DNA of 61,109 bases from Candidatus Eiseniibacteriota bacterium (GTDB lineage Bacteria > Arandabacterota > Arandabacteria > Arandabacterales > Arandabacteraceae): positions 1-61,109 of the forward strand of contig JBDRNT010000045.1 of NCBI GenBank assembly GCA_043810925.1, read 5' to 3'. Below the pieces are notes generated by a model. The model saw nothing but the letters and a program-made list of their open reading frames with translations, was not told the DNA's origin and searched no databases. This document shows positions 28,332 through 52,800 of the stretch, in pieces. Numbering within the stretch: position 1 is the first letter of the stretch; each line of letters opens with the position of its first letter. The translations under genes and the position numbers were made by a program.

Positions 28332-29624
28332 TTATCTCACGTAGGGTAAGGATCGCAGTGATCTCCCATCCGCATCCCGGGCCTTCTCAAGCGCTTCAAG
28401 CAGAGGACGCAGATAAGCCTCAGAGTAGCGGGTCGCCTGGTAGACCTCATGGAGGTTGTCGTCTCCGCTGCGGTTGACTACCATTTCCCAGACGACCTCG
28501 TTCGACCGGTTGACCTCGAACAGGCGGCTCCAGGCCGTCTTCTTCCGGAGCACGCGGCGCCGGAAGATGTCAAAGAACCTTGCTACCGCATTTGGGGGGC
28601 GGCAACTCGACTGGCAGACAAAGACATTCCCATTGGAGAGCGGCTGCGAGCCGCTGGTATAACCGCTGAAGAATCCGGGCTCTCGCGATCCGCGGTCACT
28701 GTATTCCCAGACGATCTCGTCCGACAACGGGGCAAGCTCAATTACTCTCGAGTAACCGCGTTGGGTTCCGTTATCGAATATGAGGATGTTACCGTTCTTC
28801 ATCATAACGGGATTGTGCTGACCGTCCAGATCTCCCGGGCCCCATGCCCACGCTATCTCACCGGATTCCTTGTCGATCACGCCGATCGTGTTGAAGTTGG
28901 GATAACTGATGAGGATGTTACCCGCCCGGAACCGAGAGTCCTCGGTGGCGCTTGCGTTTTCCGGCATCACCCGGCATGTGTTGCTGTGCGCCCAGTCGAG
29001 CACACCGTCCCTGCGGCGCGCCGGATTCTCTTCAAGTGGAAACGATATACCCAGAAGTCCGGTGAGTTCATCGAGGTGGTCCTCTCCCCGCCACGTCCAC
29101 ACGGCTTCCTTCCCGGTGGTCACCTCGACTATCCCGGGACACCGCACATCCCCCGTGCCAATGGCAGGCACCGGTTTGTCTTCTATGTAGTGAATGAGGA
29201 TATTGCCGCTGGGAAGAAGATCGAAATCGTGATCCGCCCACGACTTGTAGTACCAGATGATGTTGCCGAAGGGATCCGTCTCACGCAGACCGGCCCTCTC
29301 CTTAAAAGAACGGTCACGTGTCTTATAAAGCAGGTTCCCGTTCGGTTTGAGTTTGGCCAGCTGGACTGAACCCATCACATGCCACCGGTGTACGAGTTTG
29401 CCGTCGCTATCGACCAGGTAGATCCCACTCGGCTCCGTCAGCTCCTGGCCGATGTCATCGATCGTAAATGTGAAGAGCGTATGTCCTCCGTGGGCTTTTC
29501 CTTCAACGTTGATCCGAACATCGAACATCGGATAGTGATATGCCCTGTAGAGGACCGACACCGCAAGGATTGCGGCCACAACCAGGATAAGCCCTATGAT
29601 CACCGTGTTCCGACTTCCTGTCAC
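28332..29624 (-). CDS. Arylsulfotransferase (ASST)-like beta-propeller protein
   Basis: N-terminal anchor; DHDF, DWAHSN, GQHNP, IFDNG motifs. Confidence 0.8.
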   Translation of the reverse strand: MTGSRNTVIIGLILVVAAILAVSVLYRAYHYPMFDVRINVEGKAHGGHTLFTFTIDDIGQELTEPSGIYLVDSDGKLVHRWHVMGSVQLAKLKPNGNLLYKTRDRSFKERAGLRETDPFGNIIWYYKSWADHDFDLLPSGNILIHYIEDKPVPAIGTGDVRCPGIVEVTTGKEAVWTWRGEDHLDELTGLLGISFPLEENPARRRDGVLDWAHSNTCRVMPENASATEDSRFRAGNILISYPNFNTIGVIDKESGEIAWAWGPGDLDGQHNPVMMKNGNILIFDNGTQRGYSRVIELAPLSDEIVWEYSDRGSREPGFFSGYTSGSQPLSNGNVFVCQSSCRPPNAVARFFDIFRRRVLRKKTAWSRLFEVNRSNEVVWEMVVNRSGDDNLHEVYQATRYSEAYLRPLLEALEKARDADGRSLRSLPYVR

Positions 29625-31138
29625 TCGAACACCTCCGTGATACTGTAAAACTTGTACAGATGATCGTTATCCACAAACGCGTAGATCTCATCACTCATTA
29701 GCTCGAGGTCCTGCCCGAAGTAGAGATTGAGGACGACACGAAATGAGTTCACAGGTGATATCGAAGAGTAGAGCACGCTGTCGGGCGCACCGGGAAGGTA
29801 ATAGGCGTTGAGTATTCGCATCTTCTGCTTAAGCTCTTCAGGCGTTGCATCAGTCCATTTGAAACGATACGCGTCCTCTTTGTAGCGCTGCGGAAACGGA
29901 CCCTCATCCGATTGCAGGACTATCACCGGAGGACGCTTTGAGCGCGCGATGAGGATATCGATCAACTCCATAACCCGCTTGTTGGTGTAGACCAGTTGGT
30001 CTATGTAACCATCCCGCTCGCTTCGCGTAAGACTCTCTTTCTCCGTGATGAAACCGCCGTCTCTGTCGAACACGTAAGGCGAGTGCGGTACGAGCATATG
30101 TGCGAACACGAACGTGGGCTCATCGATGTCGGCCATCTCCGCGAGTCTATCGAACTTGTAGCGAATCCGCTTCCACTGTTGCCTGCGGCTGTCGAGGATT
30201 CCAAGTCGGGTACCGATAGGCTGGAATGCGGTTGTTTCATAAAGCACCGTGGCGAACTCCGACAGCCAGTAGTAATTGACATTCACATCGGCGTACTTGT
30301 TCCGGGTCGTAGGCTCCCACCAGTCACCGAAGTGATAGAACATGTAACCCCTCGTCTTCAGGAAACGCCACAGTTTGTAGTCCTGGAGAAGCGTGAAGAG
30401 CGGCATCCAGTCGGAGCAATCCTCCCCCACCCTCTCAGTGAGGTAGTTGATGTACTCCATGTTAAGTGACGATGCAAGCGAATGGGCAGTCTTGAGATAG
30501 TTGGCCTTGCTCTCCGTTGCCACATAGAAGCCTTTGTCGAGGAGATAGTCCATGAAGCCGCTGTTGTCGAAATCGTAGTATTCACTGAGACTGGCGACCC
30601 CGCCGTATCGATCCAGGATTATGTAGTAGATATCCGGTAGCGGACCTTTTTCCCCCGGCCCCGGGGTATGGTAGTCCACGCCGGGCGCAATCGTGTCGCG
30701 CGACCATGCGGTATCCCGCCTGACTGTATAGACACCTATATCAACAATAGAAATCACGACCAGCGAGATCGCCACCACATTCATGAAATCAGTCAGACCC
30801 TTGAGCGGCCGGCGCGTTCTCAGGGTCAAGTAGAGGATCACGACAAAGAGCACGGCCCAGAAAAGCAGCATATATCTGTGTCTCACGCCACTGGTCATAC
30901 TGTGGAAACGACCGTAGGAGAAAAAGAGCACCACGAAAGTCGAGACGATGATACCCGCCCTGATCCTGTTTCTCATGATCGCCTGGAGGACCAGAAAGAT
31001 CAGGGCCACAGCCAGACCTATCACCGCCAAGGGTACGACTATTTCGCCGAGTGACATGCTCTTCTTGTTATGGGAAAAGAGGAAGAGTACCTGGAAGATG
31101 CCCAACAGGAATGGATGGACGACGATGGTCTTCTTCAA
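29621..31138 (-). CDS. Membrane sulfatase-like hydrolase/transferase (NoeB-like)
   Basis: Five N-terminal TMs; PDIYYIILDRY, FVFAHMLVPHSPY, QSDEG, ILNAYY, SPVNSFR. Confidence 0.75.
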   Translation of the reverse strand: MKKTIVVHPFLLGIFQVLFLFSHNKKSMSLGEIVVPLAVIGLAVALIFLVLQAIMRNRIRAGIIVSTFVVLFFSYGRFHSMTSGVRHRYMLLFWAVLFVVILYLTLRTRRPLKGLTDFMNVVAISLVVISIVDIGVYTVRRDTAWSRDTIAPGVDYHTPGPGEKGPLPDIYYIILDRYGGVASLSEYYDFDNSGFMDYLLDKGFYVATESKANYLKTAHSLASSLNMEYINYLTERVGEDCSDWMPLFTLLQDYKLWRFLKTRGYMFYHFGDWWEPTTRNKYADVNVNYYWLSEFATVLYETTAFQPIGTRLGILDSRRQQWKRIRYKFDRLAEMADIDEPTFVFAHMLVPHSPYVFDRDGGFITEKESLTRSERDGYIDQLVYTNKRVMELIDILIARSKRPPVIVLQSDEGPFPQRYKEDAYRFKWTDATPEELKQKMRILNAYYLPGAPDSVLYSSISPVNSFRVVLNLYFGQDLELMSDEIYAFVDNDHLYKFYSITEVFE

Positions 31139-32532
31139 GATTCAGCTCCTGCTCTCTTCATCAGGTAGAGAGTCCGCTCGGAGTCCTTTATCCGGACACG
31201 CTCTTTTATCGTGAATCTCTTTTCGAACTCATGCTCGAAAGCTTCCTCGGTGTAATCCGTGAAGATGTCCTCTCTCACCACGAGGAGCCGTTTGACCTGT
31301 GAGTCGGTCTTGGGCACGTACTCGATGATGAGAGACCTGCAGATCTCGCTCAGGAACCGGGCAATCATGGTGAACGGCAGGTTGTTCGAAATCGCAAGGT
31401 GATGAACCAGGGCAAGGGCAAGCACCGCGTCGACCGGTCCCCTCTCGATAAGGGACATTCGTTCGTCGTTGCTCCACCCCACACCGGGACTCGGATTGGC
31501 CAGGTCAAGCAGAAGCGGCAGCAGGTGGTTCTCGCCCCGCTTCACGCATTCCAGATAGTTCTTCTCCACGGCTGACGGATCCACATCAAAGGAAATGGTC
31601 GGGATCTGCTTGTCAGATGCGATTCGGCTGAATACACCCACGTTCCCACCAAGATCCCACACACCAGCCGGCTTGACGCTGTCCAGGAATTCACCTACGG
31701 TCTCTTGCTTGTGCCGGAAACCATCGCGAGTGTAGTTGGTGTCATTGTAGTAGTCCGCCCACTCGGTGCCCTGAGCCCGCCACTTCAGTTTCCTGACGGC
31801 CGATTCAAGGCTGCTTATCACGCCGAGGAATGAGACGCGCCGCATCTTGTACCGGCGCTTGCCTACAGATTTGTCGGAGAAGTAACTCTGGCTCTTCGAA
31901 TGAAGATGGAGATGCGACAGGAGCGAGAAATTGAGCCGTGTTCGAAACGGCAGAAGCGTGCTTGCCATGTCCAGAGGGACTCCGTCTATGTAGACACGCA
32001 GCAGCTGATTGAGCCTGATATCGGTGTAGGCCATGAGCGCGAGCGGTGCGAGAAAGTGCTGGCAGAACTGACGATAGGCGACCCAGGGCTCCCCTTCGCG
32101 GTACTTCTCGAAGGACAGCGTGTCGATGAATACGGGTTTACCCTTATGGAACTGGATGTTATATGCACTCGCATCTTTTAGTGACATACCGAAATCGAAC
32201 GCGGTCTTCTGGATTTCAAGCGTCGTAAGAGCCGCTTGCTTGAGCTGCGTGAAGCACCACTCATATGGATAGGAAATGAAAGATATTTTCTCCGGCTGAA
32301 TGATCTTGTAGGCGCCCTTCCCTCTCTCCGGGGTGACGTCAGATTCACAGTGGGGAACCATCAGTCCCCGGTCGATCAGAGCCTGGTACAGTCCAGACTG
32401 CATCAGATGATCGTAGTCGTCTTTGTAGAGTGTATTTACCTGCCGAAAGAGCTTGCCGTCCCGAGTGAAAAGAAACCCGCTGGGGTCCCGAAAGGAACCC
32501 GGTATGCTGCCGTTACTCGGCGTCTTTTTCAT
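31135..32532 (-). CDS. NoeA-like SAM-dependent methyltransferase
   Basis: GSFRDPSG, SYPYEW, LKDASAYN, QFCQHFLAPL, WDLGGNVG, LALVHHLAI. Confidence 0.82.
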   Translation of the reverse strand: MKKTPSNGSIPGSFRDPSGFLFTRDGKLFRQVNTLYKDDYDHLMQSGLYQALIDRGLMVPHCESDVTPERGKGAYKIIQPEKISFISYPYEWCFTQLKQAALTTLEIQKTAFDFGMSLKDASAYNIQFHKGKPVFIDTLSFEKYREGEPWVAYRQFCQHFLAPLALMAYTDIRLNQLLRVYIDGVPLDMASTLLPFRTRLNFSLLSHLHLHSKSQSYFSDKSVGKRRYKMRRVSFLGVISSLESAVRKLKWRAQGTEWADYYNDTNYTRDGFRHKQETVGEFLDSVKPAGVWDLGGNVGVFSRIASDKQIPTISFDVDPSAVEKNYLECVKRGENHLLPLLLDLANPSPGVGWSNDERMSLIERGPVDAVLALALVHHLAISNNLPFTMIARFLSEICRSLIIEYVPKTDSQVKRLLVVREDIFTDYTEEAFEHEFEKRFTIKERVRIKDSERTLYLMKRAGAES

Positions 32533-35058: not shown

Positions 35059-35101
35059 AGGCCGTCGGGCATTGAACCCCGACGCTACCATCACAAACTT
35101 C

Positions 35102-35252
35102 CATCGCGAGCAAAGCGCTCTGTCATCGCGGGCTAAGCGCTCTGTCATCGCGAGCAAAGCGTTCTGTCATCGCGGGCAAAGCGCTCTGTCATCGCGAGCA
35201 AAGCGTGGCGATCTATAGAGATTGCCGCGTCGCCAACGCTCCTCGCAATGAC
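35102..35252. repeat. 22-bp tandem repeat (4 full + 1 partial) running into a GTCATCGCGAG...CTCGCAATGAC palindromic element
   Basis: Unit CATCGCG(A/G)GCAAAGCGCTCTGT at 35102, 35124, 35146, 35168 and 35190; inverted ends 35188-35198 and 35242-35252; lies between convergent genes. Confidence 0.88.
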
Positions 35253-35275: not shown

Positions 35276-36286
35276 CTATTTCTCCTCAAGGAGGTATAGC
35301 TGCCACAGGTCGTGGCTGCTTGTGTGGAGGAATGGTGCCATTGCGAGTTGACCGGTCTTGCCTATGCTTTTTTCAAGGAACTTCAGCTCGGTGAGTCTTG
35401 CCTTTGTCTCGGGGTCGGCGGGGACGCGGAATCCTGCCTCCCTCATCAGCAGAATCCCCTTTGCCCGGACCGCCAGTTCAAGGTGAACCCTCAAGAAGCA
35501 CAACATATCGGCCACAATCTCTCCCGGAAATCTGGCTTGGAGAGAGGTAAGATACTCCCCTATGCGCGTTGTCGAAATCGTCCCCGTGGTGACATAGCTC
35601 AGCAGCTGTACATCGGAATCCAGCCCCACCTCCAGCCAGTTCCGAAGGATTCTCTCACTCTGAGTGAAGGTGATCACGACAAGCACCGGAAGGACTATCA
35701 GCTGGGCGATCGTGTAAACGTGGGGAAGCAGGAAAAAGTGGTTGAAGAATGAATGGATCGCTATTGCGATCAGGAGCCCGGGCAGAAACACATGAAATCC
35801 TCCCCGGGCATAACGGTCTGACCGGTTCTTGGCGAGCACCGCAAAGATCGCCGTGGTGCCGCCGTGCATCACGGCCGTGCCGAAACCACGGATGATCCAG
35901 GCAAGTATATTGGCCTCCTCAAGCGAGCGAAGGTAGTAGATATTCTCGATGACCGCAAAGCCCGCCCCGACAGCAAAGCCGCAGATCGCGGCGTCCACCA
36001 TGAACCCGAGCCGTTTTCTGCTGATCAAGTATATCAGGGGTACCGCCTTGAGCAGTTCTTCAAGAACAGGGGCAAGGTATCTCGAGAACGTCTGGATCTC
36101 CATGCCGCAAACCCTTTGGATCGGTCCGTTGAGAAACATCAGCACCACGGCCGCCACACACCCGATCAGTATGGTTTGAACGATCATGCGGACACTGACC
36201 AGCTTGAAACTGTCCAGAAAGACAAGACCCGCAAGAAATGCGAATACCGGCGGCAGGCTGACGCAGATTCTCAGTAGGTCTATCAC
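35276..36286 (-). CDS. prsW: PrsW family intramembrane metalloprotease with C-terminal extension
   Basis: APVLEELLK, FAVIEN, TAVMH and IHSFFN motifs; multiple TMs. Confidence 0.88.
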   Translation of the reverse strand: MIDLLRICVSLPPVFAFLAGLVFLDSFKLVSVRMIVQTILIGCVAAVVLMFLNGPIQRVCGMEIQTFSRYLAPVLEELLKAVPLIYLISRKRLGFMVDAAICGFAVGAGFAVIENIYYLRSLEEANILAWIIRGFGTAVMHGGTTAIFAVLAKNRSDRYARGGFHVFLPGLLIAIAIHSFFNHFFLLPHVYTIAQLIVLPVLVVITFTQSERILRNWLEVGLDSDVQLLSYVTTGTISTTRIGEYLTSLQARFPGEIVADMLCFLRVHLELAVRAKGILLMREAGFRVPADPETKARLTELKFLEKSIGKTGQLAMAPFLHTSSHDLWQLYLLEEK

Positions 36287-39231
36287 AGTATCTTCAGCGA
36301 GACCATGAACTCATCCGAAAGCTTCCGGTCGCGCTCCATGGCGGCGGCATAGCCGAATGACAGAGTCGAATTGAGAAGTGAAAAGGTGACAAGTCTGAAA
36401 TCAATCTGACCGCCGACGTTTATCAGTTCTCTCCGGCATACGTCACAGTCGGGATTGGTCATTATCCCCGATGAGAACAGCGCGAGTCTTGCCCACCTGA
36501 AGTATGCGCTTGTCAGACCCAGCCGCTTGAACCTGACGGGCGGAAGCAGCAACTCCATCATCAGTTTGCCGTAGTTCTTCCCGCCGACTGCGTTGAGTTC
36601 AGCGCCCGGGAAACTGTAGTAGTCCCTGTAACGCTTGATCTCACGGCGGTCGACCCAGTTGTTTCCGAAACCGCCGAAATAGAAGTTTCCGAACGGGCTC
36701 TCCCCATCCCCGAATGAATGTCCTGCAGAACTCCTCAACCAGAGCGCCCAATGATCAGCCGGGAGGAGAAAGCCGTAATCGAGTGTCGCATACACCCGGG
36801 GGAAATGCTCGGAGTTGACGTAGACATCATTGGCCTCGAGTTGGGCCTTTACGCCTTTCTCGTAGTCGACCGCACCGAGGGTCGCAGCCACATCCTCATA
36901 ACCGAGCGCGGCCACATATGACATCGATTTGTCATAGGACGCCGCCACATTCTGGTAATCAGGCAACCGTTCAAGTCCGGCGTAGCCTGAAACACCTATT
37001 GAAAGATCAAGCTTCCTGGGCTCCTCCCACAGGAGCGTCCTGTGGTATCCAACAGAAGCGCAATGCCCTTTCAAGCTCGTTTTCGTAGGACCGAAGAGGT
37101 CGTAGAAGTCGGCATTGTTGTACGCGTAGTTGACATTCCAGTTCCAGTAGCTGTACGCGAAGCCTACATGCAACCTCTCTTCTTCGGGTAGTTCGTCGAC
37201 CGGCGTGTATGTACCTGTCAGATGAGTATTGCTGATTCCCAGCATGTCCTCGAAGTTGAACCGCATGCCGACAGCAGCATAGTCCTTGTAACCCTCCACA
37301 ACGGGATAAGCAGACACCAGCTCGCCTTCAGGCGGCAGGTGATAGTCCCCTGAATCCGTTATCAGTGAATCGACATCACCCGGCCCTTCTCCCGTCAGAC
37401 TCCATGTGGTCACGACGGGGTGGTTGTCAACTACCTCCTGGCCCAGGTACCTGATTGCGGCCGCCCTCTCAATCGGCTCACTTGATATCATGCCGGGGAC
37501 AAATCCCTGTCCCGTGTACTGGAAGACGACCAGTGAATCATCCGATACCGGCAGGGGTCTGAAGAAGCCGGTCTCGCAGTTGCTGACCAGGTCCATGTCC
37601 ATCTCCCGGAGGTCATAGCGGTATATGTTTGACACGCCGCTATAGTAAGAAGAACCATAGAGAAAGTTTCCGTCGGGGGAGAACACGAAATTAGCCGGTG
37701 TACTGTTCTCAAAGTCAAACAGGACATCGTATGACCCGCCACCGCTCAGGAGCAGATCCGTATCCATCCTTATCAGCTCCAGATGCAACCCGCTGACATC
37801 CGTCAGCGCGCCGGTCACGTACCGGCCGTCGGGTGAGATGTCGATATCGAAGATGTCCTTGCCATAGGTGAAGGAATAGACATGATTCCACTCTTCGTAA
37901 GGATACGGGATACGGACTATGGTCGATAAGCCATTGTAGTGGCGGACTCCCCAGATCGACTTGTCTGACCGGTTGAAAGTCAGATCACCTGTCCTGACGT
38001 CTTTGATCAGGAGCCTGGTTTCACCGGTCTCGACATCGACCGCGACTAAGTCCCGCCAGCCGGCGTTGTCCGTCGTAAAAAACAACGTGCCGGACTCCGG
38101 GTCGTACGCCAGTGATGTGACATAGTAAAGTGCCGCGCCCCGGACATCGCACACCTTCTTTAGTCTGCCCGTGTCAATATCCAGGGCAGCGATATGCGCT
38201 GTCTCACCGGGATATAGAAGAGCAGCATAGATTTTTCTGTCCTTGGGGTTGTAGTAGCCCCGGGAAACCGACCCGAGCGCGTGCGGTGACAGCGGGCGAA
38301 ACGCAGTTGTGGGATATGACCGGATCCTTTCGAGGTTAGCCTCCTGCCACTGGTGTTCCCACTTAACCCATCTTGACCATTCGTCGGAGAGCGAAACACC
38401 ATATACCTTTTTGAACTGAGAACTGAAGTAGCGTTTGCTGTCATCAGTACGTGTAACCCACTTGATCAAGTTCTCCGGACCGTGTTCAAGCGCGAGGTAG
38501 CTGTAGAAGCGGGTTCCGTAAAGATAAGAGTTCGCGCCGACCTGAAAATCCGACGCCGTACCCTCTGACTCCAGTCCCACGGCGTTGTAGATGTAGTTCC
38601 CATCCCGGATCTTCGTGCGGAAGACCATCTCATCGTACGCGCCGAGGGAACGACCGAGCCCGCCTGCCATCCACGTTTCCATAAAGACGGCGATCCCTTC
38701 GTGATACCACCGGGGGCAGTACCATCTTGGAACGGTCAAGTAGCTGTAAAGCATGGAAATGGGATCTTGTGCAGTAGCCGACACCTTACCAAAGAAGATC
38801 GACCGAAAGAAGTTGTCGGTACCTGATGCCTTGTCGCTGCAGACGACATGGACCATCTCGTGGTTCATGAGCCAGTTCATCCGCTCATTGGCCGGTCGTG
38901 TCTCGTAGACATAGCTGAAGGGCGCTATATTGAGGGCCATACGATTTCTGGGGACCGCACCCGTCCCCCCGGTCCCGTAGTCCCAGAAGTCTTGAAGCAG
39001 GATAGTAACCTTCTCGTGCGAGTCATAGTCAAAGAAGGCCCGATGGTACGCAAGGGAACGCTCATAGCAGTTGACAACGTGCGGGGTCATGTACTCGAGG
39101 GCCTTCCCGGCATATATCAGATTGAGGTTTTCGGTTTCGAGTCTATAGAGCTGCCCAAATAGAGCCTGTGGTATGAGGATGAGGATCAAACCAGCGGATA
39201 TGCATATTCCCGGCAACGTTCGGATAGTCAT
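36283..39231 (-). CDS. Outer-membrane protein: HExxH (peptidase MA-like) domain + beta-propeller + probable beta-barrel
   Basis: Signal peptide; NHEMVH and PRWYHEGIA; propeller repeats (ISPDG, FSPDG); C-terminal amphipathic beta-strands with FYFGGF. Start moved to ATG 39231. Confidence 0.75.
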   Translation of the reverse strand: MTIRTLPGICISAGLILILIPQALFGQLYRLETENLNLIYAGKALEYMTPHVVNCYERSLAYHRAFFDYDSHEKVTILLQDFWDYGTGGTGAVPRNRMALNIAPFSYVYETRPANERMNWLMNHEMVHVVCSDKASGTDNFFRSIFFGKVSATAQDPISMLYSYLTVPRWYCPRWYHEGIAVFMETWMAGGLGRSLGAYDEMVFRTKIRDGNYIYNAVGLESEGTASDFQVGANSYLYGTRFYSYLALEHGPENLIKWVTRTDDSKRYFSSQFKKVYGVSLSDEWSRWVKWEHQWQEANLERIRSYPTTAFRPLSPHALGSVSRGYYNPKDRKIYAALLYPGETAHIAALDIDTGRLKKVCDVRGAALYYVTSLAYDPESGTLFFTTDNAGWRDLVAVDVETGETRLLIKDVRTGDLTFNRSDKSIWGVRHYNGLSTIVRIPYPYEEWNHVYSFTYGKDIFDIDISPDGRYVTGALTDVSGLHLELIRMDTDLLLSGGGSYDVLFDFENSTPANFVFSPDGNFLYGSSYYSGVSNIYRYDLREMDMDLVSNCETGFFRPLPVSDDSLVVFQYTGQGFVPGMISSEPIERAAAIRYLGQEVVDNHPVVTTWSLTGEGPGDVDSLITDSGDYHLPPEGELVSAYPVVEGYKDYAAVGMRFNFEDMLGISNTHLTGTYTPVDELPEEERLHVGFAYSYWNWNVNYAYNNADFYDLFGPTKTSLKGHCASVGYHRTLLWEEPRKLDLSIGVSGYAGLERLPDYQNVAASYDKSMSYVAALGYEDVAATLGAVDYEKGVKAQLEANDVYVNSEHFPRVYATLDYGFLLPADHWALWLRSSAGHSFGDGESPFGNFYFGGFGNNWVDRREIKRYRDYYSFPGAELNAVGGKNYGKLMMELLLPPVRFKRLGLTSAYFRWARLALFSSGIMTNPDCDVCRRELINVGGQIDFRLVTFSLLNSTLSFGYAAAMERDRKLSDEFMVSLKIL

Positions 39232-39320
39232 ACGCTTACCACCCCCGGTCAGGATACCACAGACGCACGAGGTTCTCACAGCATGTTGCCACACCTCGGA
39301 ACCTATCCCACCGATTATAA

Positions 39321-39355
39321 GTGGAGATACCACACTCATCGTGTGGTATCTCCGC
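39321..39355 (-). terminator. Hairpin/terminator downstream of the repeat-protein gene
   Basis: GGAGATACCACAC-TCATC-GTGTGGTATCTCC perfect 13-bp stem; followed by TTATAAT on the minus strand. Confidence 0.6.
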
Positions 39356-39399
39356 GCTTGGATCGTTGTCAGATCTACTCGATCCGTCTCACGACGATC

Positions 39400-40836
39400 C
39401 TACGGGCCGACTTTCGCGATGAACTTCGCCCGCATATCGGGGTCTCTCATCACCCCGACGAAGTTGGGATCAGCCATAAGACCCGCACACCCAGGCTCAG
39501 CCATGAGCGTCATCAGCTTCGGATCGCCAAAGAGCTTCTGAAATCTCCACGGACGATCACCGAGCGCTGCAACGAAGTCCGCATCTGCGAAAAGCTTCTG
39601 AAATCTCCACGGACGATCATTCAGTATCGTCACCAGGTTCTGATCGGCAAAGAGCTTCTGAAATCTCCATGGACGATCAGCCAGCACCGCAGTCATTTGA
39701 TCACCGGCGAAGAGTCTCTGCCATTTGAATGGCCGGTCAGCCAGATCAGCCGCGAAGTCCGCATTGGCAAATAACTTCTGGAACTTCCACGGACGGTCAT
39801 TCAGCACCGCCATGAAGTCCGCGTCGGCAAACAGCTTCTGGAACCTCCACGGACGGTCACCAAGAGCAGCAACGAAGTCAGCGTCAGCAAAGAGCTTCTG
39901 AAATCTCCATGGACGATCAGCCAGCACAGCGACCACGTTAGGATCGGCAAACAACCTCTGGAACCTCCACGGACGGTCATTAAGCACCGTCTGGAAGTGC
40001 GCGTTGTCAAAGAGCTGCTGCCACTTCCACGGGCGATCCCCGAGCTCCGCCTCGAACTTGGGATCGGAAAACTGCTTCTGCCACCGCCCCGGGCGGTCGG
40101 CCAGCACTTTCATGACCATCGGCTCGGCCAGAATAGCGACGATATCCGGATCCGCAAACAGAGCGGAAATCTCTCCATCGGCGAAGAGATCCGCTATTTC
40201 GGGATCCGCAAGAACAGCTGCTATCTCGGCCTCGCCGAGGATCTCTCCTATTTCCGGATCGCCGAACAGGACTGCTACTTCCGGATCGGCAAAGAGCTTC
40301 TCCCATCTCCATGGCCGGTCGGCCAGCACTTCCATCACATCCGCATCGGCAAAGAGCTTCTGCCACCTCCACGGACGATCAGCCAGCACCTCCATCAACT
40401 CGGGGTCACCAAAGACGGCTGCAACGTCTGCCTCAGCAAGGATAGTGCCTAACTCCGGGTCACCCAGGAGAGCCGCCATCTCGGCATCGGCAAACAGCAT
40501 TTGCCACTTCCATGGACGGTCAGCCAGTCCATCAGTGAAGTTCGGATCGGCCATGACTGCCTGAAACGCCGGGTCACCCAGCAGGGTCTGAACGTCATCA
40601 CGCTGAAGCAGCGCGTGGAATTCAGCATCCTCAAGGATGACATCCGCGTCCGCCATCTGTTCGGCACGGTACTTCTCGGCTTTCTCGACGCCACCGATTG
40701 TCGCCTTAACATCCTCGGTGGGCGCCTCCCTCTGAACCCGTGCGACGACCAGGATGACAACCACGACCACCACCGCCACACCGATTATCACAGCCCAACG
40801 TCCGTGCTTACTCGGCCTGCCGGAATTCTCCGTCAT
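39400..40836 (-). CDS. Membrane-anchored helical repeat protein (9-aa DP-type and 11-aa DRPWRFQKLFA units)
   Basis: Single N-terminal TM; 13 DRP-[WFG]-[RK]-[WF] motifs; uninterrupted frame across a 60-bp DNA periodicity. Confidence 0.85.
   Translation of the reverse strand: MTENSGRPSKHGRWAVIIGVAVVVVVVILVVARVQREAPTEDVKATIGGVEKAEKYRAEQMADADVILEDAEFHALLQRDDVQTLLGDPAFQAVMADPNFTDGLADRPWKWQMLFADAEMAALLGDPELGTILAEADVAAVFGDPELMEVLADRPWRWQKLFADADVMEVLADRPWRWEKLFADPEVAVLFGDPEIGEILGEAEIAAVLADPEIADLFADGEISALFADPDIVAILAEPMVMKVLADRPGRWQKQFSDPKFEAELGDRPWKWQQLFDNAHFQTVLNDRPWRFQRLFADPNVVAVLADRPWRFQKLFADADFVAALGDRPWRFQKLFADADFMAVLNDRPWKFQKLFANADFAADLADRPFKWQRLFAGDQMTAVLADRPWRFQKLFADQNLVTILNDRPWRFQKLFADADFVAALGDRPWRFQKLFGDPKLMTLMAEPGCAGLMADPNFVGVMRDPDMRAKFIAKVGP
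39527..40110 (-). repeat. Coding tandem repeat, 60-bp period, about 10 copies
   Basis: AGCTTCTGAAATCTCCACGGACGATCA-like core recurs every 60 bp with mostly synonymous variation. Confidence 0.9.
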
Positions 40837-40914
40837 CTCGATCCCCCCCTTTCCTTTCTAAGGTTCGTTTGACGATCCATTCTCCTACCTCCTCTTCTTC
40901 CTCCACACCCTAAT

Positions 40915-40939
40915 TACAGAACAGAGTCCAAAATGTTGG
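40915..40939 (-). promoter_or_regulatory. Putative ECF-sigma promoter of the repeat-protein gene
   Basis: CCAAC-N16-TGTA; same motif and spacing as 42326-42350. Confidence 0.6.
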
Positions 40940-40950
40940 AGCCAAAACCA

Positions 40951-41781
40951 TCATTTCCTCCCGTTTTCCCCCGGTTTTTCCTCACCGGTCCGCGTCTCGG
41001 GCTCCGGTCCTACATCAAATCTGTGGCTCAGGATAGTCTCACCCGAGACCATTATCTTGAAATCGACGGGTATGGCCGAAGCCGTCTGCGTGACGAAAGC
41101 CAGCATGAACTCCACTGCCCCGGACCCCGATACACTGACACAGCCGTCGTCAGTCTCAAGGCCAATCTCCCCGTAGGCCAGAGGTCTCAGACCGCTGAAA
41201 CCCATCTGGGCAGGATCGTACAGTAGCAGCACTTCAAACGCGTCCGTGCTCTCGAGTATCACCTTGAACCTCAAGAGGTCCTCAAACCGCAACAGGTTTA
41301 CGCTTCCCGTAGCCTCCGGCATGTCGACCGGCACCCGTTCTACCGGCGCGAAGCGCGACTCTTCGCTGATGCCGATCGTACCGTACATCTCTCTAACGTC
41401 GGAGCCGTACCTTCCCCCGGGAGCGGTCAGGAACACGGAATAAACCACCAGGCCCACGACCATCCCGAGGGCGAATGCGTACGCCAGCCGCGGTTTGAGG
41501 CCTACTTGTCTTGCCTTTAGCAGGAATCGCATCACGGGCCGGCCGCCCCTGGCCCGGTGTCTATTGAAATCCAGCGAATTCATTATGCTCTGCTTGAGGT
41601 GCCCGGGCGGCTCGACGTCACTGACTTGCCTGAGCAGATTGGAGGTTTGAAGGACCTCTCTATAGAGTTTCTGCGCACCCGGGGTCTTTCGCATGTACTG
41701 ATAGAGCGCTTCTCTTTCGTCCGGACTTATGGTCCCGGCCATCTCCTTGTCTATCAGCTCGATGTACTCTTGCTCATTCAT
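40951..41781 (-). CDS. Transmembrane anti-sigma factor
   Basis: Overlaps the sigma stop; N-terminal anti-sigma-like helices lacking HxxxCxxC; VEPP..LK; one TM; periplasmic beta domain. Confidence 0.78.
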   Translation of the reverse strand: MNEQEYIELIDKEMAGTISPDEREALYQYMRKTPGAQKLYREVLQTSNLLRQVSDVEPPGHLKQSIMNSLDFNRHRARGGRPVMRFLLKARQVGLKPRLAYAFALGMVVGLVVYSVFLTAPGGRYGSDVREMYGTIGISEESRFAPVERVPVDMPEATGSVNLLRFEDLLRFKVILESTDAFEVLLLYDPAQMGFSGLRPLAYGEIGLETDDGCVSVSGSGAVEFMLAFVTQTASAIPVDFKIMVSGETILSHRFDVGPEPETRTGEEKPGENGRK

Positions 41782-42319
41782 TTCCGATTATCCCTCGGGC
41801 CACCAGCACCTTCCTCAGAAGCTGCCTGCCTGTAAACAGTCTGGATTTGACCGTCTTCTCCGGGATCTCAAGAATGTCACTCATCTCCTTGTAGGAGAGG
41901 TTCCTGAAATGCTTGAGCACAACGACGGTGCGGTAGGTGGGGTCGAGCTCCATCAAGGCCTCCCCCATCTTGCGGCTCAACTCAGTATCGCTGTATGCCT
42001 CGTCCGGCGCCTTGCCCTTCGAAACCATGTCCGCGGTCAACTCGGTCATGCGCTTGCGCTGGTTGATGTGATTGAGCGCCTCGTTGATCGCTATCCGGTA
42101 GAGCCAGCTGAAGAACCGGTACTTGGGATCAAACGAATCCATTTTCTCGTAACTCTTGATGAAAACGACCTGGGTGATGTCCTCCGCCGTGTCATAGTCG
42201 TTGACCATCCTGTACGCCACGTTGAACACCACCTTCTGGTATCGATTCACAAGTTCTTCGAATGCTTGCTCAATACCCTCCAAGCATTCCCTTACCAGGT
42301 CCTTATCGTTGCGTTCCAT
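41774..42319 (-). CDS. ECF RNA polymerase sigma factor (SigW/RpoE-like)
   Basis: AFEELVNRYQ, AEDITQ, FFSWLYRIAIN, LSYKEMSDIL..P..TVKSRL. Confidence 0.93.
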   Translation of the reverse strand: MERNDKDLVRECLEGIEQAFEELVNRYQKVVFNVAYRMVNDYDTAEDITQVVFIKSYEKMDSFDPKYRFFSWLYRIAINEALNHINQRKRMTELTADMVSKGKAPDEAYSDTELSRKMGEALMELDPTYRTVVVLKHFRNLSYKEMSDILEIPEKTVKSRLFTGRQLLRKVLVARGIIGNE

Positions 42320-42325
42320 ATGAAG

Positions 42326-42350
42326 TACATTGCAGGACTCGAGAAGTTGG
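42326..42350 (-). promoter_or_regulatory. Putative autoregulatory ECF promoter (leaderless transcript)
   Basis: CCAAC-N16-TGTA ends 6 nt before the sigma ATG; no SD visible. Confidence 0.6.
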
Positions 42351-42477
42351 CGATTTTCTGCAGCCAGAGTCCCTGCCGCGAAACCTCCTGCCCTTAGGGG
42401 CGTGCTTCCATTGCCCCCCGTCCCGGGCACCACGCACTACGGCCCTCCGTGCCAGGGCGCCCACTCTGCTAATCTTA

Positions 42478-42762
42478 CTACTCGATCTCGAAGATCATGT
42501 CGAAGCCCGCATATTGGAAGACTTCTCGGATATGCTTATTCATATTCTTCAGTCTGAGCTGATGACCGGCCTCACTCAGTCGCTTCTGTGTGCTCAGGAG
42601 CACACTCAGGCCGCCACTGGAGATGTATTCAAGATTCTCGAAATCCACCACTGAACTCTTGCTGATCTTTTCAAACTCAGCCTGCGCTTTCTCCACCTGC
42701 GCGGCATCAAATCGCCCTGACATCACAACCACATCACCCTCGCGAAGTTCTACGCTAAACAT
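42478..42762 (-). CDS. STAS-domain anti-sigma antagonist (RsbV/SpoIIAA-like)
   Basis: SGRFD, DFENLEYISSGGL with the phospho-acceptor Ser, VFQYAGF. Confidence 0.9.
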   Translation of the reverse strand: MFSVELREGDVVVMSGRFDAAQVEKAQAEFEKISKSSVVDFENLEYISSGGLSVLLSTQKRLSEAGHQLRLKNMNKHIREVFQYAGFDMIFEIE

Positions 42763-43171
42763 TTACGTTCCCCAGATCCTTTACCAACGTGATCTTGCTC
42801 TGCCTGTCGTTGTATTCGTATTTGACCCCATCTATCATTCGCTTGACCAGGTGGACCCCCAGGCGGCCGATCGGACGCTCACTAAGCGGCCGGCCGGTGT
42901 CGTACTCCTGAGCCTCTGTGATATCGAACGGTTCGACGTCGAAGTCCGTCAGAGACACCGTCAGGCTTTCACCGGCTTTCTCAAGACCGATCAGGATATC
43001 GCTGCCACCCCCAACATTGTGTCTTACCATATTAACGAAAAGCTCTTCAATTGCAAGGCTGACTTTGAACATGTCTGTCTCGGAAATACCATTCTCAGTC
43101 CCAAATTCAGATATAAAGGGGAAAATGTCGTCAAGTGCATCCACTTTCCTGTTAAAGCGCTTCTCGATCAT
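42755..43171 (-). CDS. RsbW-like HATPase anti-sigma/serine kinase
   Basis: LAIEELFVNMVRH N-box, IGRLGVHLV G2-like box; TGATG coupling with the upstream phosphatase. Confidence 0.85.
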   Translation of the reverse strand: MIEKRFNRKVDALDDIFPFISEFGTENGISETDMFKVSLAIEELFVNMVRHNVGGGSDILIGLEKAGESLTVSLTDFDVEPFDITEAQEYDTGRPLSERPIGRLGVHLVKRMIDGVKYEYNDRQSKITLVKDLGNVNV

Positions 43172-44475
43172 CAATTGCACCGCTTTACCACGACGGCCGT
43201 CATGTCGTCCATCTGCGGCAGCTCGCCTGCATGCTGCTGGACTGCTTCTACAATCCTCTCGACCAGGCGTTCTGCAGTATCCCCGGAATTGGCCGTGACC
43301 AGTTCGGCTAACCGAGTTTCTCCGAAGAGCTGCTCTTGCCTGTCGATCGCCTCGGTGATTCCATCTGAATACACAAGCAGTATGTCTCCCATATCAAGCG
43401 TGACCCTGCCTGCCGTGTAGATTGCCTTACCCATACAACCAAGGGCGACTCCGCCCACTTCCAGCCGCCTCGGTTCTTTACCCGCCCTGAACAGGAATGG
43501 CGGGTTGTGACCGGCATTGGAATAGTGCAGATCATGGGCCTTGCTGTCGAGCATGGCATAGAAGAGAGTCACAAACCGATCCAGGTTCATGCCCGTCAGC
43601 AGATGCTCATTCGACCGTCCGAGACAGTCCTCCGGGCAAAGACCTTGCAAGACATACCCCCTGAGCGCTGCCTGTATGTTCGCAACCAGCAGGGCCGCAG
43701 GCATACCTTTGCCCGAGACGTCTCCAAGACAGACACCAAGGCGCGCCCCCTCCCGCGGGATGAAGTCGAAATAGTCGCCTCCCACATCCTTGGCGGGGAT
43801 ACTCCTGCCCCAGATATCATAGCCCGGGATGTCAGGTGCACCCTGGGGAAGCAAGCCCACCTGTATCTTGTAGGCAATCTTCATTTCCTTCTGCATGACC
43901 TTGAGGGCCTGCTCATCCTCATACAGACGGGCGCTCTCGATGACCTGTGCCGACTCGGTCCCGATTATGCTCAACAGCCGCTTGTCCGCATCGGTGAAGC
44001 CTTCTTCAGTTCGTTTGTTGAAGACATTGAGTGAGCCGATCATCCGACCCTTGAAAAGCAGGGGGACACTCAAAACCGAGCGGATAGGCTGGTCTTTGGT
44101 GCGATCGACCTTGAAGCGTTCGTCGTTCTCAAGGTCATTTGAGAGCAGGGGTTTCTTGTATTTAAGAAGCCATCCTATGAGCTGGGTATCGAGGCGAAAC
44201 GGCAACGTCGTCTCGGTGATATCCGCCCGCCGGATCATAGTCTGAAAGGGTTTCTCCTCATTCTTGGGATCGAGCAGCATCACAGCACCCTGCTCGGCTT
44301 TGATGTGCTTGATGGACTTCTTAACGATCAGCTCCATGATCCTGTCGACCGACCAAGCCGCGCTGATCGCCCTGGTAATATCGTTGAGAATCGTGAGTTC
44401 CTCAAGCGACACCCTGAGCCGCCGGTTCTCCTCTTCGAGTTTCTTCAGGTAACTGTCGCTCCTGGTGTCGACCAT
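43171..44475 (-). CDS. GAF-domain SpoIIE/RsbU-type PP2C phosphatase
   Basis: GAF (SVLSVPL..FTDAD); VGGDYFD, GDVSGKG, NAGHNPP, YSDGITEA, DDMT. Confidence 0.93.
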   Translation of the reverse strand: MVDTRSDSYLKKLEEENRRLRVSLEELTILNDITRAISAAWSVDRIMELIVKKSIKHIKAEQGAVMLLDPKNEEKPFQTMIRRADITETTLPFRLDTQLIGWLLKYKKPLLSNDLENDERFKVDRTKDQPIRSVLSVPLLFKGRMIGSLNVFNKRTEEGFTDADKRLLSIIGTESAQVIESARLYEDEQALKVMQKEMKIAYKIQVGLLPQGAPDIPGYDIWGRSIPAKDVGGDYFDFIPREGARLGVCLGDVSGKGMPAALLVANIQAALRGYVLQGLCPEDCLGRSNEHLLTGMNLDRFVTLFYAMLDSKAHDLHYSNAGHNPPFLFRAGKEPRRLEVGGVALGCMGKAIYTAGRVTLDMGDILLVYSDGITEAIDRQEQLFGETRLAELVTANSGDTAERLVERIVEAVQQHAGELPQMDDMTAVVVKRCN

Positions 44476-44684
44476 GGCTAGCGATCCTCCGGACTCGAGT
44501 CAGATTCCAGGTGCACCACGACCACTGGCCGTGGAATGTATCGTGCGCACGGGGGGCGTACGCAGCAGCCCTTAAGCAGCATGATACACTCTTCGAGAGG
44601 TGCTCCCAGGGGTCAATCCTCCCTTACGCTTTGCTTCCGCCATCGCTGTAATGATTATATGACACCGGCTGCCACCCGGTCAAA

Positions 44685-49865: not shown

Positions 49866-52800
49866 ATGAAAACCAGTCTTTGGGCGGCGACTTTCGGTCT
49901 TGTTGTCATTGCTATCCTCACCCTCCCTTACACGCTCGGAAGCGCGACATCCGAGGCTTGGACGGCCCCGGAAACGGCCGTACCGGGACTCGAGATCTCA
50001 GGCGATCCCGCGGTCTGGCAGCGTGAGCACGTAAAAGCCCTTGATCCCGTCTATGACGGAGCCTCGGGCCGTAGAGGCAAGGGTGATCTCATGGGGTTTT
50101 ACTTCGATCAGGAGACCGACAGGCTATCGATGCGTGTCAATCTCTTCCGGCCGCCTGGTGTGTTCGAATCGGACCCGCTGCTCGCCGAGGGAATCGAGGC
50201 CTATGTACTGATGGACTATATGCCCGGCGGGACGACGGCACTTCCGGGTGATGTCACTGGGACTGCGCCCTTTGCGTGGGACCGGGCGGTCGAGCTGGTG
50301 GAGAGCGATGGCCGACTTGTGGCCCGCGTGCTCGACTCCGGTCTGGCCCAGGAAGAGACACAGCGGCTCCGGCGTGTGATCGGTTCCCGGCGTTGGGGAA
50401 CAATGGAGACCAGCCTTTGGCTGCCGGGTGGTTTTAAAAGAGCTGTCGCCGCCGCTTCCGGCGAGAGTGAGAACCGCTACGGAGCAGTAGCCGCGCAGGC
50501 GGCTGAGGCCGAGGCCACTCCGATCAAATTCTACGTGTTCACGGCTTCCGACGGGGCGGTTCTCGATGAGATCACAGCAACCAACTCGCCGACGAGTAAC
50601 ACGCATAACGTCGCCTTTGCCCAGCATCTCAACCAGGGACTCACCTACACCACGGTCTTTAGAGGCGAGCGGGAGGAGCTGGCTTCTTACGACGGCGATC
50701 CCAATAACCCCGACGACGGTGCGGACGAACTGCTGGCCGCGCATGACTACTACAACCTCCCGCTTAACTGGCACCAGGGCGGGCTCCTGATATCGGCCGC
50801 CGAGTGGCACGACCCCACCTTTAACGACTGGATAGCAGCGGGGGTTACCGCCGGTAGATACGAAATTCTGACATCGGCTCTGGGCCAGCAAATCATGCCC
50901 TTCATCCGTGATGAGATAAACGGTAAGTCGGTCGATGTCGAAAACGACATGATCCTGACCCACTACAGCTACGTACCGCGCGTGGCCTGGGTACCAGAGC
51001 GGGTGTGGGTCGAAAACCCCGACCTTGACGGTAACGGAATAACCGCCTCCGCCAATGTGATCGACTACATCGGTGATGACTTCACGGACAACGGCGTGTG
51101 GGCCGTCATCCTCGACGACTATGTGCACTGTGGCTACAACAACAACGCGTTCAACGATCATCACATCTACACTTATAACTCGGTCAAGATTCTGCCCCTT
51201 GATAACGACTTTGTGGGCCAGGTCAACTGGAGTGCAGGTGATGCCTGGAATACGATCCTGGCGGGCACCTCGGATGAGATCATACTCTATGCGAACGATG
51301 CCGAGGTGGCGGCCGAGGTTTCTCAGGGTGCCGTAAACCCTGATGCGCTCAATAACTACATCTGGCTGCTGCAGCAATGTAGTGGAAACACCAGTGTCGG
51401 AGTCTGGAAACTCACGGACGTGCTCATGGACGCCGGCTTCACGACCCAGGCTCTCACGCTCCAGAACGGGACCTACGGCCTCCTGGGCGAGTTTTATGGC
51501 TATGGCGGAGGCAACAACCAGTGGTACGGGGACTGGGCAGGTTACGCCGGGGACTCCAACCTCGACGGCCACATTCCCAAGTGGGACTACGGGACCCAGT
51601 GGAATTTCACACTCACCAAGATTCTGAGTGTACCCGACAACAACCTGCGCGAAATGGCCTGGTATGTTCTTATGACCAACCTGCACGAGACGGGCTGGCA
51701 TGACGAGGGCGAGATATCAGGCTGGGCGCACCATTACAGCAACCACATGCGTTCGGGTAATGCTCATGCCGAGGCCGCACGCTGGGCCGGCGGCCTCTAT
51801 GCCGATACGACGGGAGCCTACACATCCGACTTCGATGACGACGGTGTGGATGAACTCGTCATGTTTAACGACCGCCTGCTCGCCGTCTTTGATGCGATCG
51901 GCGGCAAGCTCCAGTGGCTCTTCTGTAAGGGCGTGGATTATGACTACAGTGTTGTCTCCAATGACAACGCCTACTGGCCCGACACCGACGGCGATTACAA
52001 CGAAACAAATCACGTGGCCGTGCTTTCAGATGTGAGTGTGGCCGGGATCGACCGCGAGCATGAACTCTATACCCTTGAGGTAACGACTGCATCGGGAGGC
52101 ACAGTTGAGGCCCGGGCGGTCCATGCGGCCGTGACCAAGACGATTTCCCTCACCTATGGTGATTCCTATCTCAAGGTGCAGTACATGGCCGGCGGGGATC
52201 GTGTCTATGTCAAGAACGGCTTCTGCCCCGATAACCTCGATCTTACGTGGTCGGGTAAATCGCTCGAGCGTGTCTGGGACCCAGACGGTGGTGGTTACTT
52301 CGGACAGAAGAACACCAATACCGATGCCACAGCGGCGATCATCGTCGGAAGCGGAGGGGCGACACACAATCTTCAGTTCTCGGCCACACTGCTTGAGGGC
52401 GACGAGTTTTACGGTGACAGCCCCTTCGAGGTCTATGTCTACGGCGGCTACACAAGCCCTTCCGATACCAGCGGTAACATCGCCGAACTGATGGCGCTTC
52501 GTGACAGTCTTGTCGACCGGATCGCGCCGTCACCGCTCAGCGGTACGCATTACTCGGCCAACGATCATCTCATAATATATTTCGATGAAGCGATCGATGC
52601 ATCGAGCGTGGTTGTAACGGGGTTTGCATTTGATGATGACGATGACGGCATCGCGGATGTGACCATGACCACATCGGATTCGCTGGTGACCACCGGCTTC
52701 AGTAAAGGTCTCGGGTTTGATCTGAGTACTGCGACGGCGACCGCTATTGAAGCCTTGACGGGCCCAATCGAACTTCTGCTTGCGGCCTCATCGGTTGAGG

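Follow-up and report, generated by a model that had tools for sequence, protein, structure and literature searches.

Gene content and conservation of the cassette

The window analysed here is the whole stretch of 61,109 nucleotides at positions 1 to 61,109 of contig JBDRNT010000045.1 (GenBank assembly GCA_043810925.1), from Candidatus Eiseniibacteriota bacterium. It carries a cassette that combines a PrsW-family intramembrane protease, a predicted outer-membrane (OM) protein, a repeat protein that we call REP, an extracytoplasmic function (ECF) sigma factor with a membrane anti-sigma, and a partner switch of a PP2C phosphatase, an RsbW-like kinase and a STAS protein (Table 1). The original prediction had described eight co-oriented genes with several overlapping start and stop codons, and this was borne out: eight open reading frames, all on the minus strand, occupy positions 35276-44475, with overlaps at PP2C/RsbW, RsbW/STAS, ECF/anti-sigma and OM protein/PrsW. 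Pfam scans identified GAF and SpoIIE, HATPase_c_2, STAS_2, Sigma70_r2 and r4_2, and PrsW-protease domains, all above cut-offs; Pfam and NCBIfam scans found no fitting family for REP or the OM protein. Each cassette gene occurs in one copy in the 3.85-Mb genome. For the ECF gene the most likely start is ATG 42319, which lies 3 nt past the -10 box and gives 181 aa, rather than GTG 42433; for the OM gene it is ATG 39228 (981 aa), because the longer frame runs over the hairpin that follows REP.

Table 1. Genes and regulatory features of the cassette in window coordinates (TM, transmembrane segment)
Feature	Position	Strand	Evidence or remark
PrsW-family intramembrane protease with conserved helical C-terminal domain (about 210-336)	35276..36286	-	PF13367 E 1.9e-21
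OM protein: signal peptide, predicted gluzincin-type peptidase, beta-propeller, 16-strand Omp85-like barrel	36283..39228	-	
13-bp perfect hairpin between REP and OM gene	39323..39353	-	Candidate attenuator or mRNA stabiliser
REP: TM 14-32, leader [G/A]TIGG..KY...Q....DV.L (residues 45-67), then 9-/11-residue repeats	39400..40836	-	
Second ECF-type promoter, 5' of REP gene	40912..40938	-	Best score in genome
Single-pass anti-sigma: N-terminal helical domain, TM 102-120, G-T-I at residues 134-136 (nt 41374-41382)	40951..41781	-	
ECF sigma factor, 181 aa	41774..42319	-	Pfam; best NCBIfam match SigW, below cut-off; 46/52 loci
ECF-type autoregulatory promoter CAAC-N17-GTA, (nearly) leaderless	42323..42349	-	De novo motif; second-best score in genome
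STAS anti-anti-sigma-like protein, conserved ISSxG serine motif	42478..42762	-	STAS_2 E 2e-12
RsbW-like GHKL kinase, start GTG 43180 or ATG 43171	42755..43180	-	HATPase_c_2 E 8e-15
GAF-PP2C (RsbU/SpoIIE-type) phosphatase, variable member	43171..44475	-	Pfam GAF_2 + SpoIIE; metal-binding motifs present
Sigma-70-like promoter candidate TTGACC-N18-TATAAT, 5' of PP2C gene	44654..44683	-	Pattern match only

We performed a gene-neighborhood survey on the OM protein, which yielded 110 loci from several diderm phyla, in agreement with the predicted wide co-occurrence of these genes. Of these loci, 32 came from genomes and 78 from metagenomes (the best 80 of 576 confirmed metagenome matches were kept), and profiles were built from the first 32. 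The 110 loci collapse into 96 clusters at 90% identity and so are not fully independent. Among loci with sufficient flank, PrsW lies directly 3' of the OM gene in 79 of 83 and a REP leader lies upstream of it in 58 of 61, the three misses being a locus with a frameshifted gene (L001), one with an N-masked gene (L009) and L029. The ECF gene is upstream of the OM gene in 46 of 52 loci, with the anti-sigma N-domain in 44 and the anti-sigma C-domain in 31 of the same 52; co-oriented STAS and RsbW genes were found in 34/44 and 32/44 loci, and one or the other, in any orientation, in 38/44. No other gene family recurs tightly in the surveyed loci. The loci belong to Bacteroidota, Ignavibacteriaceae, Chlorobiaceae, Calditrichia, Candidatus Eisenbacteria and Acidobacteriota, and protein matches additionally place homologues of the OM protein, of which there were 4468 among 8000 candidates, in KSB1, Latescibacteria and Gemmatimonadota. 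Chance assembly of common signalling genes was rejected, as their co-occurrence is far above chance; the cassette is real and is conserved across diderm phyla, mostly in uncultured hosts. It is also apparently undescribed. A full-text literature search, whose coverage of subscription papers was short, returned no description of this combination of genes, in keeping with the claim that no characterised system has this composition.

Sigma factor, promoters and partner switch

The sigma factor reached the cut-off of the ECF superfamily and scored 138.3 bits against the SigW model, below that model's cut-off of 209. A term search of the ECF groups of Casas-Pastor et al. 2021, covering the text of PMC7826278 and part of one supplement, found no group with this context. 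In unbiased enumeration, the motif CAAC-N17-GTA was found upstream of REP in 34 of 64 sequences, compared with a shuffled maximum of 8-9. After duplicates and N-containing stretches were dropped, the exact core was present upstream of 46/54 ECF and 35/63 REP genes, and of 1/87 OM, 1/85 PrsW and 1/36 RsbW genes; no conserved bipartite motif was found 5' of RsbW. The genes of the RsbW/STAS switch precede the ECF promoter and stand outside the feedback loop. An in-frame ATG directly follows the -10 box in 33 of 46 motif-bearing ECF cases (52 examined), which suggests that the ECF mRNA is leaderless.

The two cassette promoters hold the top two matrix scores in the 3.85-Mb genome. Further matches in the same genome, on C68 (17.6) and C145 (14.8), lie near or within the range of the reversed-sequence control (maximum 16.3) and are leads only. 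Small regulons are common among ECFs, 47.8% of which are predicted to have three or fewer promoters, as reported in PMC7776599. In related genomes the motif also appears elsewhere: in G007 it precedes secreted propeller-FlgD-Ig proteins at four similar, probably duplicated sites, and in G007 and G011 (L183, L185) it precedes a secreted TPR-bearing protein and a CHASE2-PP2C operon. The latter could form a sigma-to-switch loop where no PP2C adjoins the cassette, a possibility drawn from two related genomes only. At L007 the motif (score 22.4) is 5' of a C39-peptidase-BNR-FlgD-Ig gene, whose homologue in the genome studied here, identified by eye only, scores 14.8. Separately, L182 (G007:C23:36000-50974) and L159/L184 (G022:C8) contain tandem arrays of genes for secreted Reg_prop-repeat proteins, about 1040-1120 aa long and ending in a FlgD-Ig domain; three sites in the L182 array carry the cassette promoter motif.

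REP had been proposed as the main output of the system, and the arrangement of the locus supports this. Its gene has its own ECF-type promoter, a strong Shine-Dalgarno sequence and a 3' hairpin, on the strength of which REP is probably produced at higher levels than the OM protein and PrsW. The hairpin 3' of REP beats all 10 shuffles in 53 of 57 loci, compared with 7 of 57 for segments inside the OM coding sequence.

The GAF-PP2C phosphatase, listed among the eight genes in the original prediction, has a variable place: a co-oriented PP2C gene lies in the 7 kb upstream of the OM gene in only 3 of 28 loci, and 19 of 28 have one anywhere, and we therefore rejected it as a fixed part of the cassette. 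The motifs of the PP2C and STAS proteins are intact and predict an active phosphatase and a phospho-acceptor STAS protein. Judged by the consensus of kinase ATP-binding boxes, RsbW keeps the N and G2 boxes, and the G1 glycine is replaced in the window and in many homologues. The set resembles RsbU/RsbV/RsbW in its PP2C, its STAS protein with a conserved serine motif and its GHKL kinase, but differs in that the phosphatase is interchangeable and no SigB-type sigma adjoins. The only adjoining sigma is the ECF factor with its own membrane anti-sigma, which does not fit sequestration of the SigB type. A STAS gene next to an ECF gene is described for ECF19 subgroups with a soluble anti-sigma, a different context (PMC7826278 supplement, as far as it was covered).

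PrsW scored 76.9 bits against PF13367 (cut-off 23.5) and 37.7 bits against the PrsW equivalog NF033739, under the required 225. In fold comparison its closest match was APH-1 (Z 13.9, root-mean-square deviation (rmsd) 5.2, 197 aligned). The motifs given for the family in PMC12943098 (EExxK, FxxxE, H and HxxxD/N) correspond to E76, E77 and K80, F110 and E114, H141, and H178 and N182, which are invariant in 47 of 47 PrsW proteins. PrsW had been named as the partner of the ECF/anti-sigma pair, and the intact catalytic motifs, together with its continued presence beside that pair, agree with this. Its helical C-terminal domain, with 13 positions invariant from residue 200 onward, is probably cytoplasmic as judged by the positive-inside rule, and had no clear family or fold match in the Atlas and in fold searches. 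In the rearranged loci L086, L089 and L108 (L086 and L089 are near-copies), PrsW stays beside RsbW and STAS. We take this domain as the likeliest target of the switch; alternatively, STAS may act on the anti-sigma domain, or RsbW on the sigma. A motif match also identified a site-2-protease-like ORF in the genome.

Shared motif, REP and the OM protein

The anti-sigma was recognised only weakly, and below cut-off, by an NCBIfam anti-sigma model (E 1.8e-7), and the periplasmic domains of three homologues tested had no Pfam match. RsiW carries a His/Cys zinc motif, and none was found in the cassette anti-sigma domain. A G[TSA][IVML] motif lies about 10-16 residues past the TM in 36 of 38 anti-sigmas, a count that is partly circular, and the same G-T-hydrophobic motif lies at a like distance past the TM in 68 of 68 REPs (2 of 70 rows were dropped for a broken TM), a count that is circular as the profile was built around the motif. 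The likeness of the motif between anti-sigma and REP, two proteins that are otherwise unrelated, is not built into the profiles. For background, the motif occurs in 34 of 176 windows elsewhere in the same anti-sigmas and in 51 of 575 single-TM proteins of the genome.

In-frame fusions of the anti-sigma N-domain to REP occur in 15 of the 110 loci; a Shine-Dalgarno sequence ahead of the internal Met is retained in 14 of these and an internal promoter in 2. Of 141 representative REPs, 36 carry a long N-terminal extension. When the 11 fused rows were mapped on a quick tree built from 47 OM proteins, 8 changes were required, at least 6 of them forced by well-supported branches. The anti-sigma domain has therefore been fused to REP repeatedly, and the TM, motif and ectodomain of REP can thus replace those of the anti-sigma, as would be expected if one protease reads both.

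Across the family, the N-terminus of REP consists of a TM, a Pro-rich linker and the leader GTIG[GA]..KY...Q[IM]...DV.L, whose profile drew 1630 clusters at 50% identity. The repeats that follow are Ala/Leu-rich, with a period of 9 in 41 of the 73 periodic homologues (135 examined), and are completely different between lineages while the leader is constant. In the window, 13 repeats carry DRP[W/F/G], and the embedded motif DRPW[KR][WF]Q recurs in relatives. REP also matched leucine-rich-repeat effectors, which we put down to a coincidental 20-residue period and rejected. Several variants were also seen. L018:1-1822 and L026:8713-9588 carry the REP leader on a different, non-repeat helical body, with two such genes in tandem in L018; P0219 has two Cys-rich inserts inside its repeats and is the most peptide-core-like case seen; and in a close relative (L001:3852-5252) the REP gene has a short leader deletion and a frameshift with the remaining cassette intact, either an assembly error or a pseudogene.

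The OM protein was modelled (predicted local distance difference test (pLDDT) 73, predicted template modelling score (pTM) 0.72) as a signal helix, a helical HExxH domain, a propeller at about 306-586 and a barrel in which DSSP counted 16 strands, with a long loop after strand 11. The putative metal and catalytic residues are H123, E124, H127 and E177; the HExxH motif and the third-ligand Glu are invariant in 47 of 47 OM proteins, and model confidence is low over residues 80-170. Peptidase_MA_2 was found in 7 of 23 members (best E 5e-5), and the motif points to a peptidase of clan MA (gluzincin) with predicted activity. The N-half of the OM protein, across peptidase and propeller, gave a profile match to an own-genome paralogue carrying Peptidase_MA_2, PD40 and Omp85 over cut-off (probability 97.3%, 500 columns). 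This distant paralogue of 1016 aa (L154:1691-4741, G000:C71) lies directly after a gene that is TamB-like by eye. The propeller matched TolB (Z 22-23, rmsd about 3, about 240 aligned) in fold searches, which at the level of the whole protein were filled by propeller matches and barely covered the barrel and peptidase folds. Omp85_2 was faint (4 of 23 members, best E 3.7e-4).

We call the OM protein a diverged WD40-Omp85-like protein. As in the WD40-Omp85 subfamily described by Heinz and Lithgow 2014 (PMC4104836), the propeller precedes a barrel of 16 strands in which strand 11 is followed by a long loop; it differs in that the barrel has no PF01103 match, POTRA is absent and a dedicated partner gene, REP, adjoins. 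The Metallo-Omp85 class of the same paper uses another domain, PF00149. The OM protein and REP may work like a two-partner secretion pair, although neither POTRA on the OM protein nor a TPS domain on REP was found in Pfam scans or in the model. Two-partner (type Vb) secretion is defined by a transporter with POTRA domains and a cargo with a TPS domain. By analogy with the topology of Omp85 proteins, the peptidase domain would be periplasmic.

Among 18 genomes of the class, the PrsW clade was found in 10, the OM protein in 9 and the REP leader in 8, and all 9 genomes with the OM protein have PrsW. One genome, G022 (96% complete), encodes RsbW, STAS, ECF, anti-sigma and PrsW consecutively, and no match to REP or the OM protein was found there. 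In G047 the regulatory run is at one locus and REP and the OM gene, under their own ECF promoter, are at another. These splits tie PrsW to the sigma and the switch, and the OM protein to REP. They also tell against the proposal that the OM protein is a receptor needed upstream of sigma release. Moreover, the G022 anti-sigma keeps the shared motif, so that the reader of the motif is probably neither REP nor the OM protein; PrsW, with all its catalytic residues invariant, would be the best candidate.

A two-module model and its alternatives

In the model that we favor, to which we give a probability of roughly 0.55, PrsW would cut a site shared by the anti-sigma and REP and so free both the sigma and the REP ectodomain, and the OM protein would handle REP. 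From the gene set, motifs, promoter, hairpin, fusion and module splits, we infer the cleavages, binding steps, switch target, stimulus and fate of REP. The anti-sigma would hold the ECF factor at the inner membrane until PrsW makes the first, site-1 cleavage in or close to the G-T-hydrophobic motif that lies immediately beyond the membrane, with a site-2 protease finishing the release. That PrsW cleaves its cognate anti-sigma is a candidate step suggested by linkage and the shared motif. The freed sigma would amplify itself from the leaderless promoter and drive REP in excess over the OM protein and PrsW. RsbW and STAS would tune the PrsW step from the cytoplasm, most likely via the PrsW C-terminal domain, and would be reset by one of several interchangeable PP2C phosphatases. 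REP would be inserted in the inner membrane by an uncleaved anchor and, because it carries the motif of the anti-sigma, PrsW would also act on it, doubling as its leader peptidase and freeing the repeat ectodomain; since the two substrates share the site, REP may feed back on sigma release. The OM protein would be the dedicated handler of REP and not an obligatory sensor, binding the freed leader and trimming, turning over or exporting the repeats. Where anti-sigma and REP are fused, one cut would serve both jobs. The label "envelope stress" for the stimulus is only an analogy to SigW.

Several observations weigh against this model. RsbW or STAS is absent from 6 of 44 loci, L077 has no PrsW within 8 kb downstream, and G048, an incomplete assembly, has REP and the OM protein with no PrsW match. 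In the window REP itself, an A replaces the G of the shared motif, and the motif counts carry the circularity noted above. The exact promoter core is missing from 28 of 63 REP genes. A weak search of 448 candidates found no longer fusion of the PrsW C-terminal domain that would link it to the switch, and the OM barrel matched neither PF01103, nor the genome's 7 Omp85 barrels, nor PDB sequences. A complex prediction with REP 8-89, the OM N-half and PrsW gave no answer (median 0.38, compared with 0.51 for an OM-replaced control) and is not evidence either way.

REP might instead not be released at all, and act as an anchored oligomeric helical rod or holdase of the GerD or STI1 kind, either a buffer for hydrophobic peptides or a structure reaching across the periplasm. 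In that case the shared motif would mediate oligomerisation or docking with the anti-sigma or PrsW, and the OM peptidase would only turn REP over. REP does resemble STI1/DP repeats and GerD, described as a trimeric superhelical rope (PMC11841064), in having short N-capped amphipathic helices in tandem. The window REP matched STI1-HOP_DP at 72.7 bits, above cut-off, homologues gave weak matches to STI1 and GerD, those to GerD being under cut-off, look-alikes labelled STI1/UBQLN were found at 0.91-0.92, and most complete ectodomains, with their Ala/Leu-rich period-9 repeats, span about 240-500 aa. However, the repeat matches scatter over unrelated Pfam families; the Atlas model of REP is poor (pTM 0.27), and REP differs from GerD in its TM anchor, absence of a lipoprotein cysteine, unique leader and hypervariable repeats. 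Persistence of the motif in the G022 anti-sigma without REP, and the leaders on non-repeat bodies in L018 and L026, also argue against an anchored role, which we consider unlikely. That the OM peptidase-barrel is a receptor, which senses an outside cue and clips the REP or anti-sigma ectodomain first to license PrsW, seems improbable. Its active site is invariant and, in fused loci, the REP ectodomain is the only periplasmic domain of the anti-sigma, so that trimming could be the trigger there; yet G022 keeps the whole regulatory module with no match to REP or the OM protein, G047 separates the modules, and the OM gene sits downstream of the ECF promoters and behind a hairpin.

The constant leader and hypervariable tandem repeats, together with positive autoregulation, would also suit a multi-core peptide precursor that PrsW frees and the OM peptidase dices into 9-11-mers, which exit through the barrel as strain-specific signals or weapons and re-activate the cassette, as in quorum sensing. 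DRPW[K/R] recurs in relatives, with a single copy in L134 and many copies in L136 and L137, L020 has the repeat RRWEIGQV, and the promoter in some relatives also precedes secreted FlgD-Ig-tagged proteins and the CHASE2-PP2C operon. Still, most REPs lack a distinctive aromatic or cysteine core (few were listed among the 135 examined), 62 of 135 have no strong periodicity, and no modifying enzyme or importer recurs in the loci, making this quite improbable. We are likewise doubtful of a broader reading, a new protein-release pathway in which PrsW serves as a dedicated leader peptidase for a hypervariable tandem-repeat cargo, an Omp85-derived peptidase-barrel exports the cargo or dices it into strain-specific peptides, the shared cut site on the anti-sigma couples this processing to sigma activation and the STAS phospho-switch gates the protease from the cytoplasm. 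If it were true, uncultured diderm phyla would use the cassette for quorum or kin signalling, or for secretion. A precedent exists in PrsW-dependent export of polymorphic toxins (Zhang et al. 2012, PMC3482391), a computational proposal in which PrsW likewise processes a secreted protein with a constant N-terminus and variable C-terminus. In the toxin systems PrsW and its cargo, a toxin domain, form one fused protein, whereas the cassette has a gene of its own for PrsW and the cargo would be a helical repeat; no toxin domain was found in REP.

Next, we noted features around the cassette. A search for RNA holders of the window listed none. Ser/Thr kinase genes, often in tandem, were identified by motif matches in 19 of 110 loci and are probably background, and response regulators directly follow PrsW in several loci. 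In the window, about 5 imperfect 22-nt tandem copies with short palindromes lie at about 35100-35210, between PrsW and a converging radical-SAM gene, and are probably a small intergenic repeat or a bidirectional terminator. Further away are a secreted protein of 1339 aa with weak glycosyl hydrolase 57 and FlgD-Ig matches (49866-53885), and a membrane sulfatase-like gene with an overlapping 465-aa gene that is methyltransferase-like by eye and has no Pfam match (29621-32532).

Returning to the two-module model, its regulatory half would work like the B. subtilis SigW-RsiW-PrsW-RasP pathway (PMC10202637), without being the orthologous system. The two share an ECF sigma whose best NCBIfam match is SigW, a single-pass anti-sigma encoded at +1, a PrsW with four catalytic motifs and an autoregulatory promoter of the AAC/GTA type. 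The cassette differs in its diderm hosts, the placement of PrsW in the operon and the conserved extra C-terminal domain of PrsW, in a second protein, REP, that shares the juxtamembrane motif, in the linked RsbW/STAS pair, in a very small regulon in this genome and in scores below the SigW and PrsW equivalog cut-offs. The half formed by REP and the OM protein, for which we found no characterised counterpart, carries the novelty.

Substrate recognition and activation of PrsW are poorly defined, and the systems named in the literature covered here are Gram-positive. In this context, a short candidate PrsW recognition site emerges from two unrelated proteins of the same operon, and the cassette offers a candidate substrate for the uncharacterised class of peptidase-propeller-Omp85 proteins. 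It also suggests a possible route by which a partner switch may control an intramembrane protease instead of a sigma factor. As these are large families without functional names (4468 OM homologues and 1630 REP clusters), annotation would gain across many little-studied phyla.

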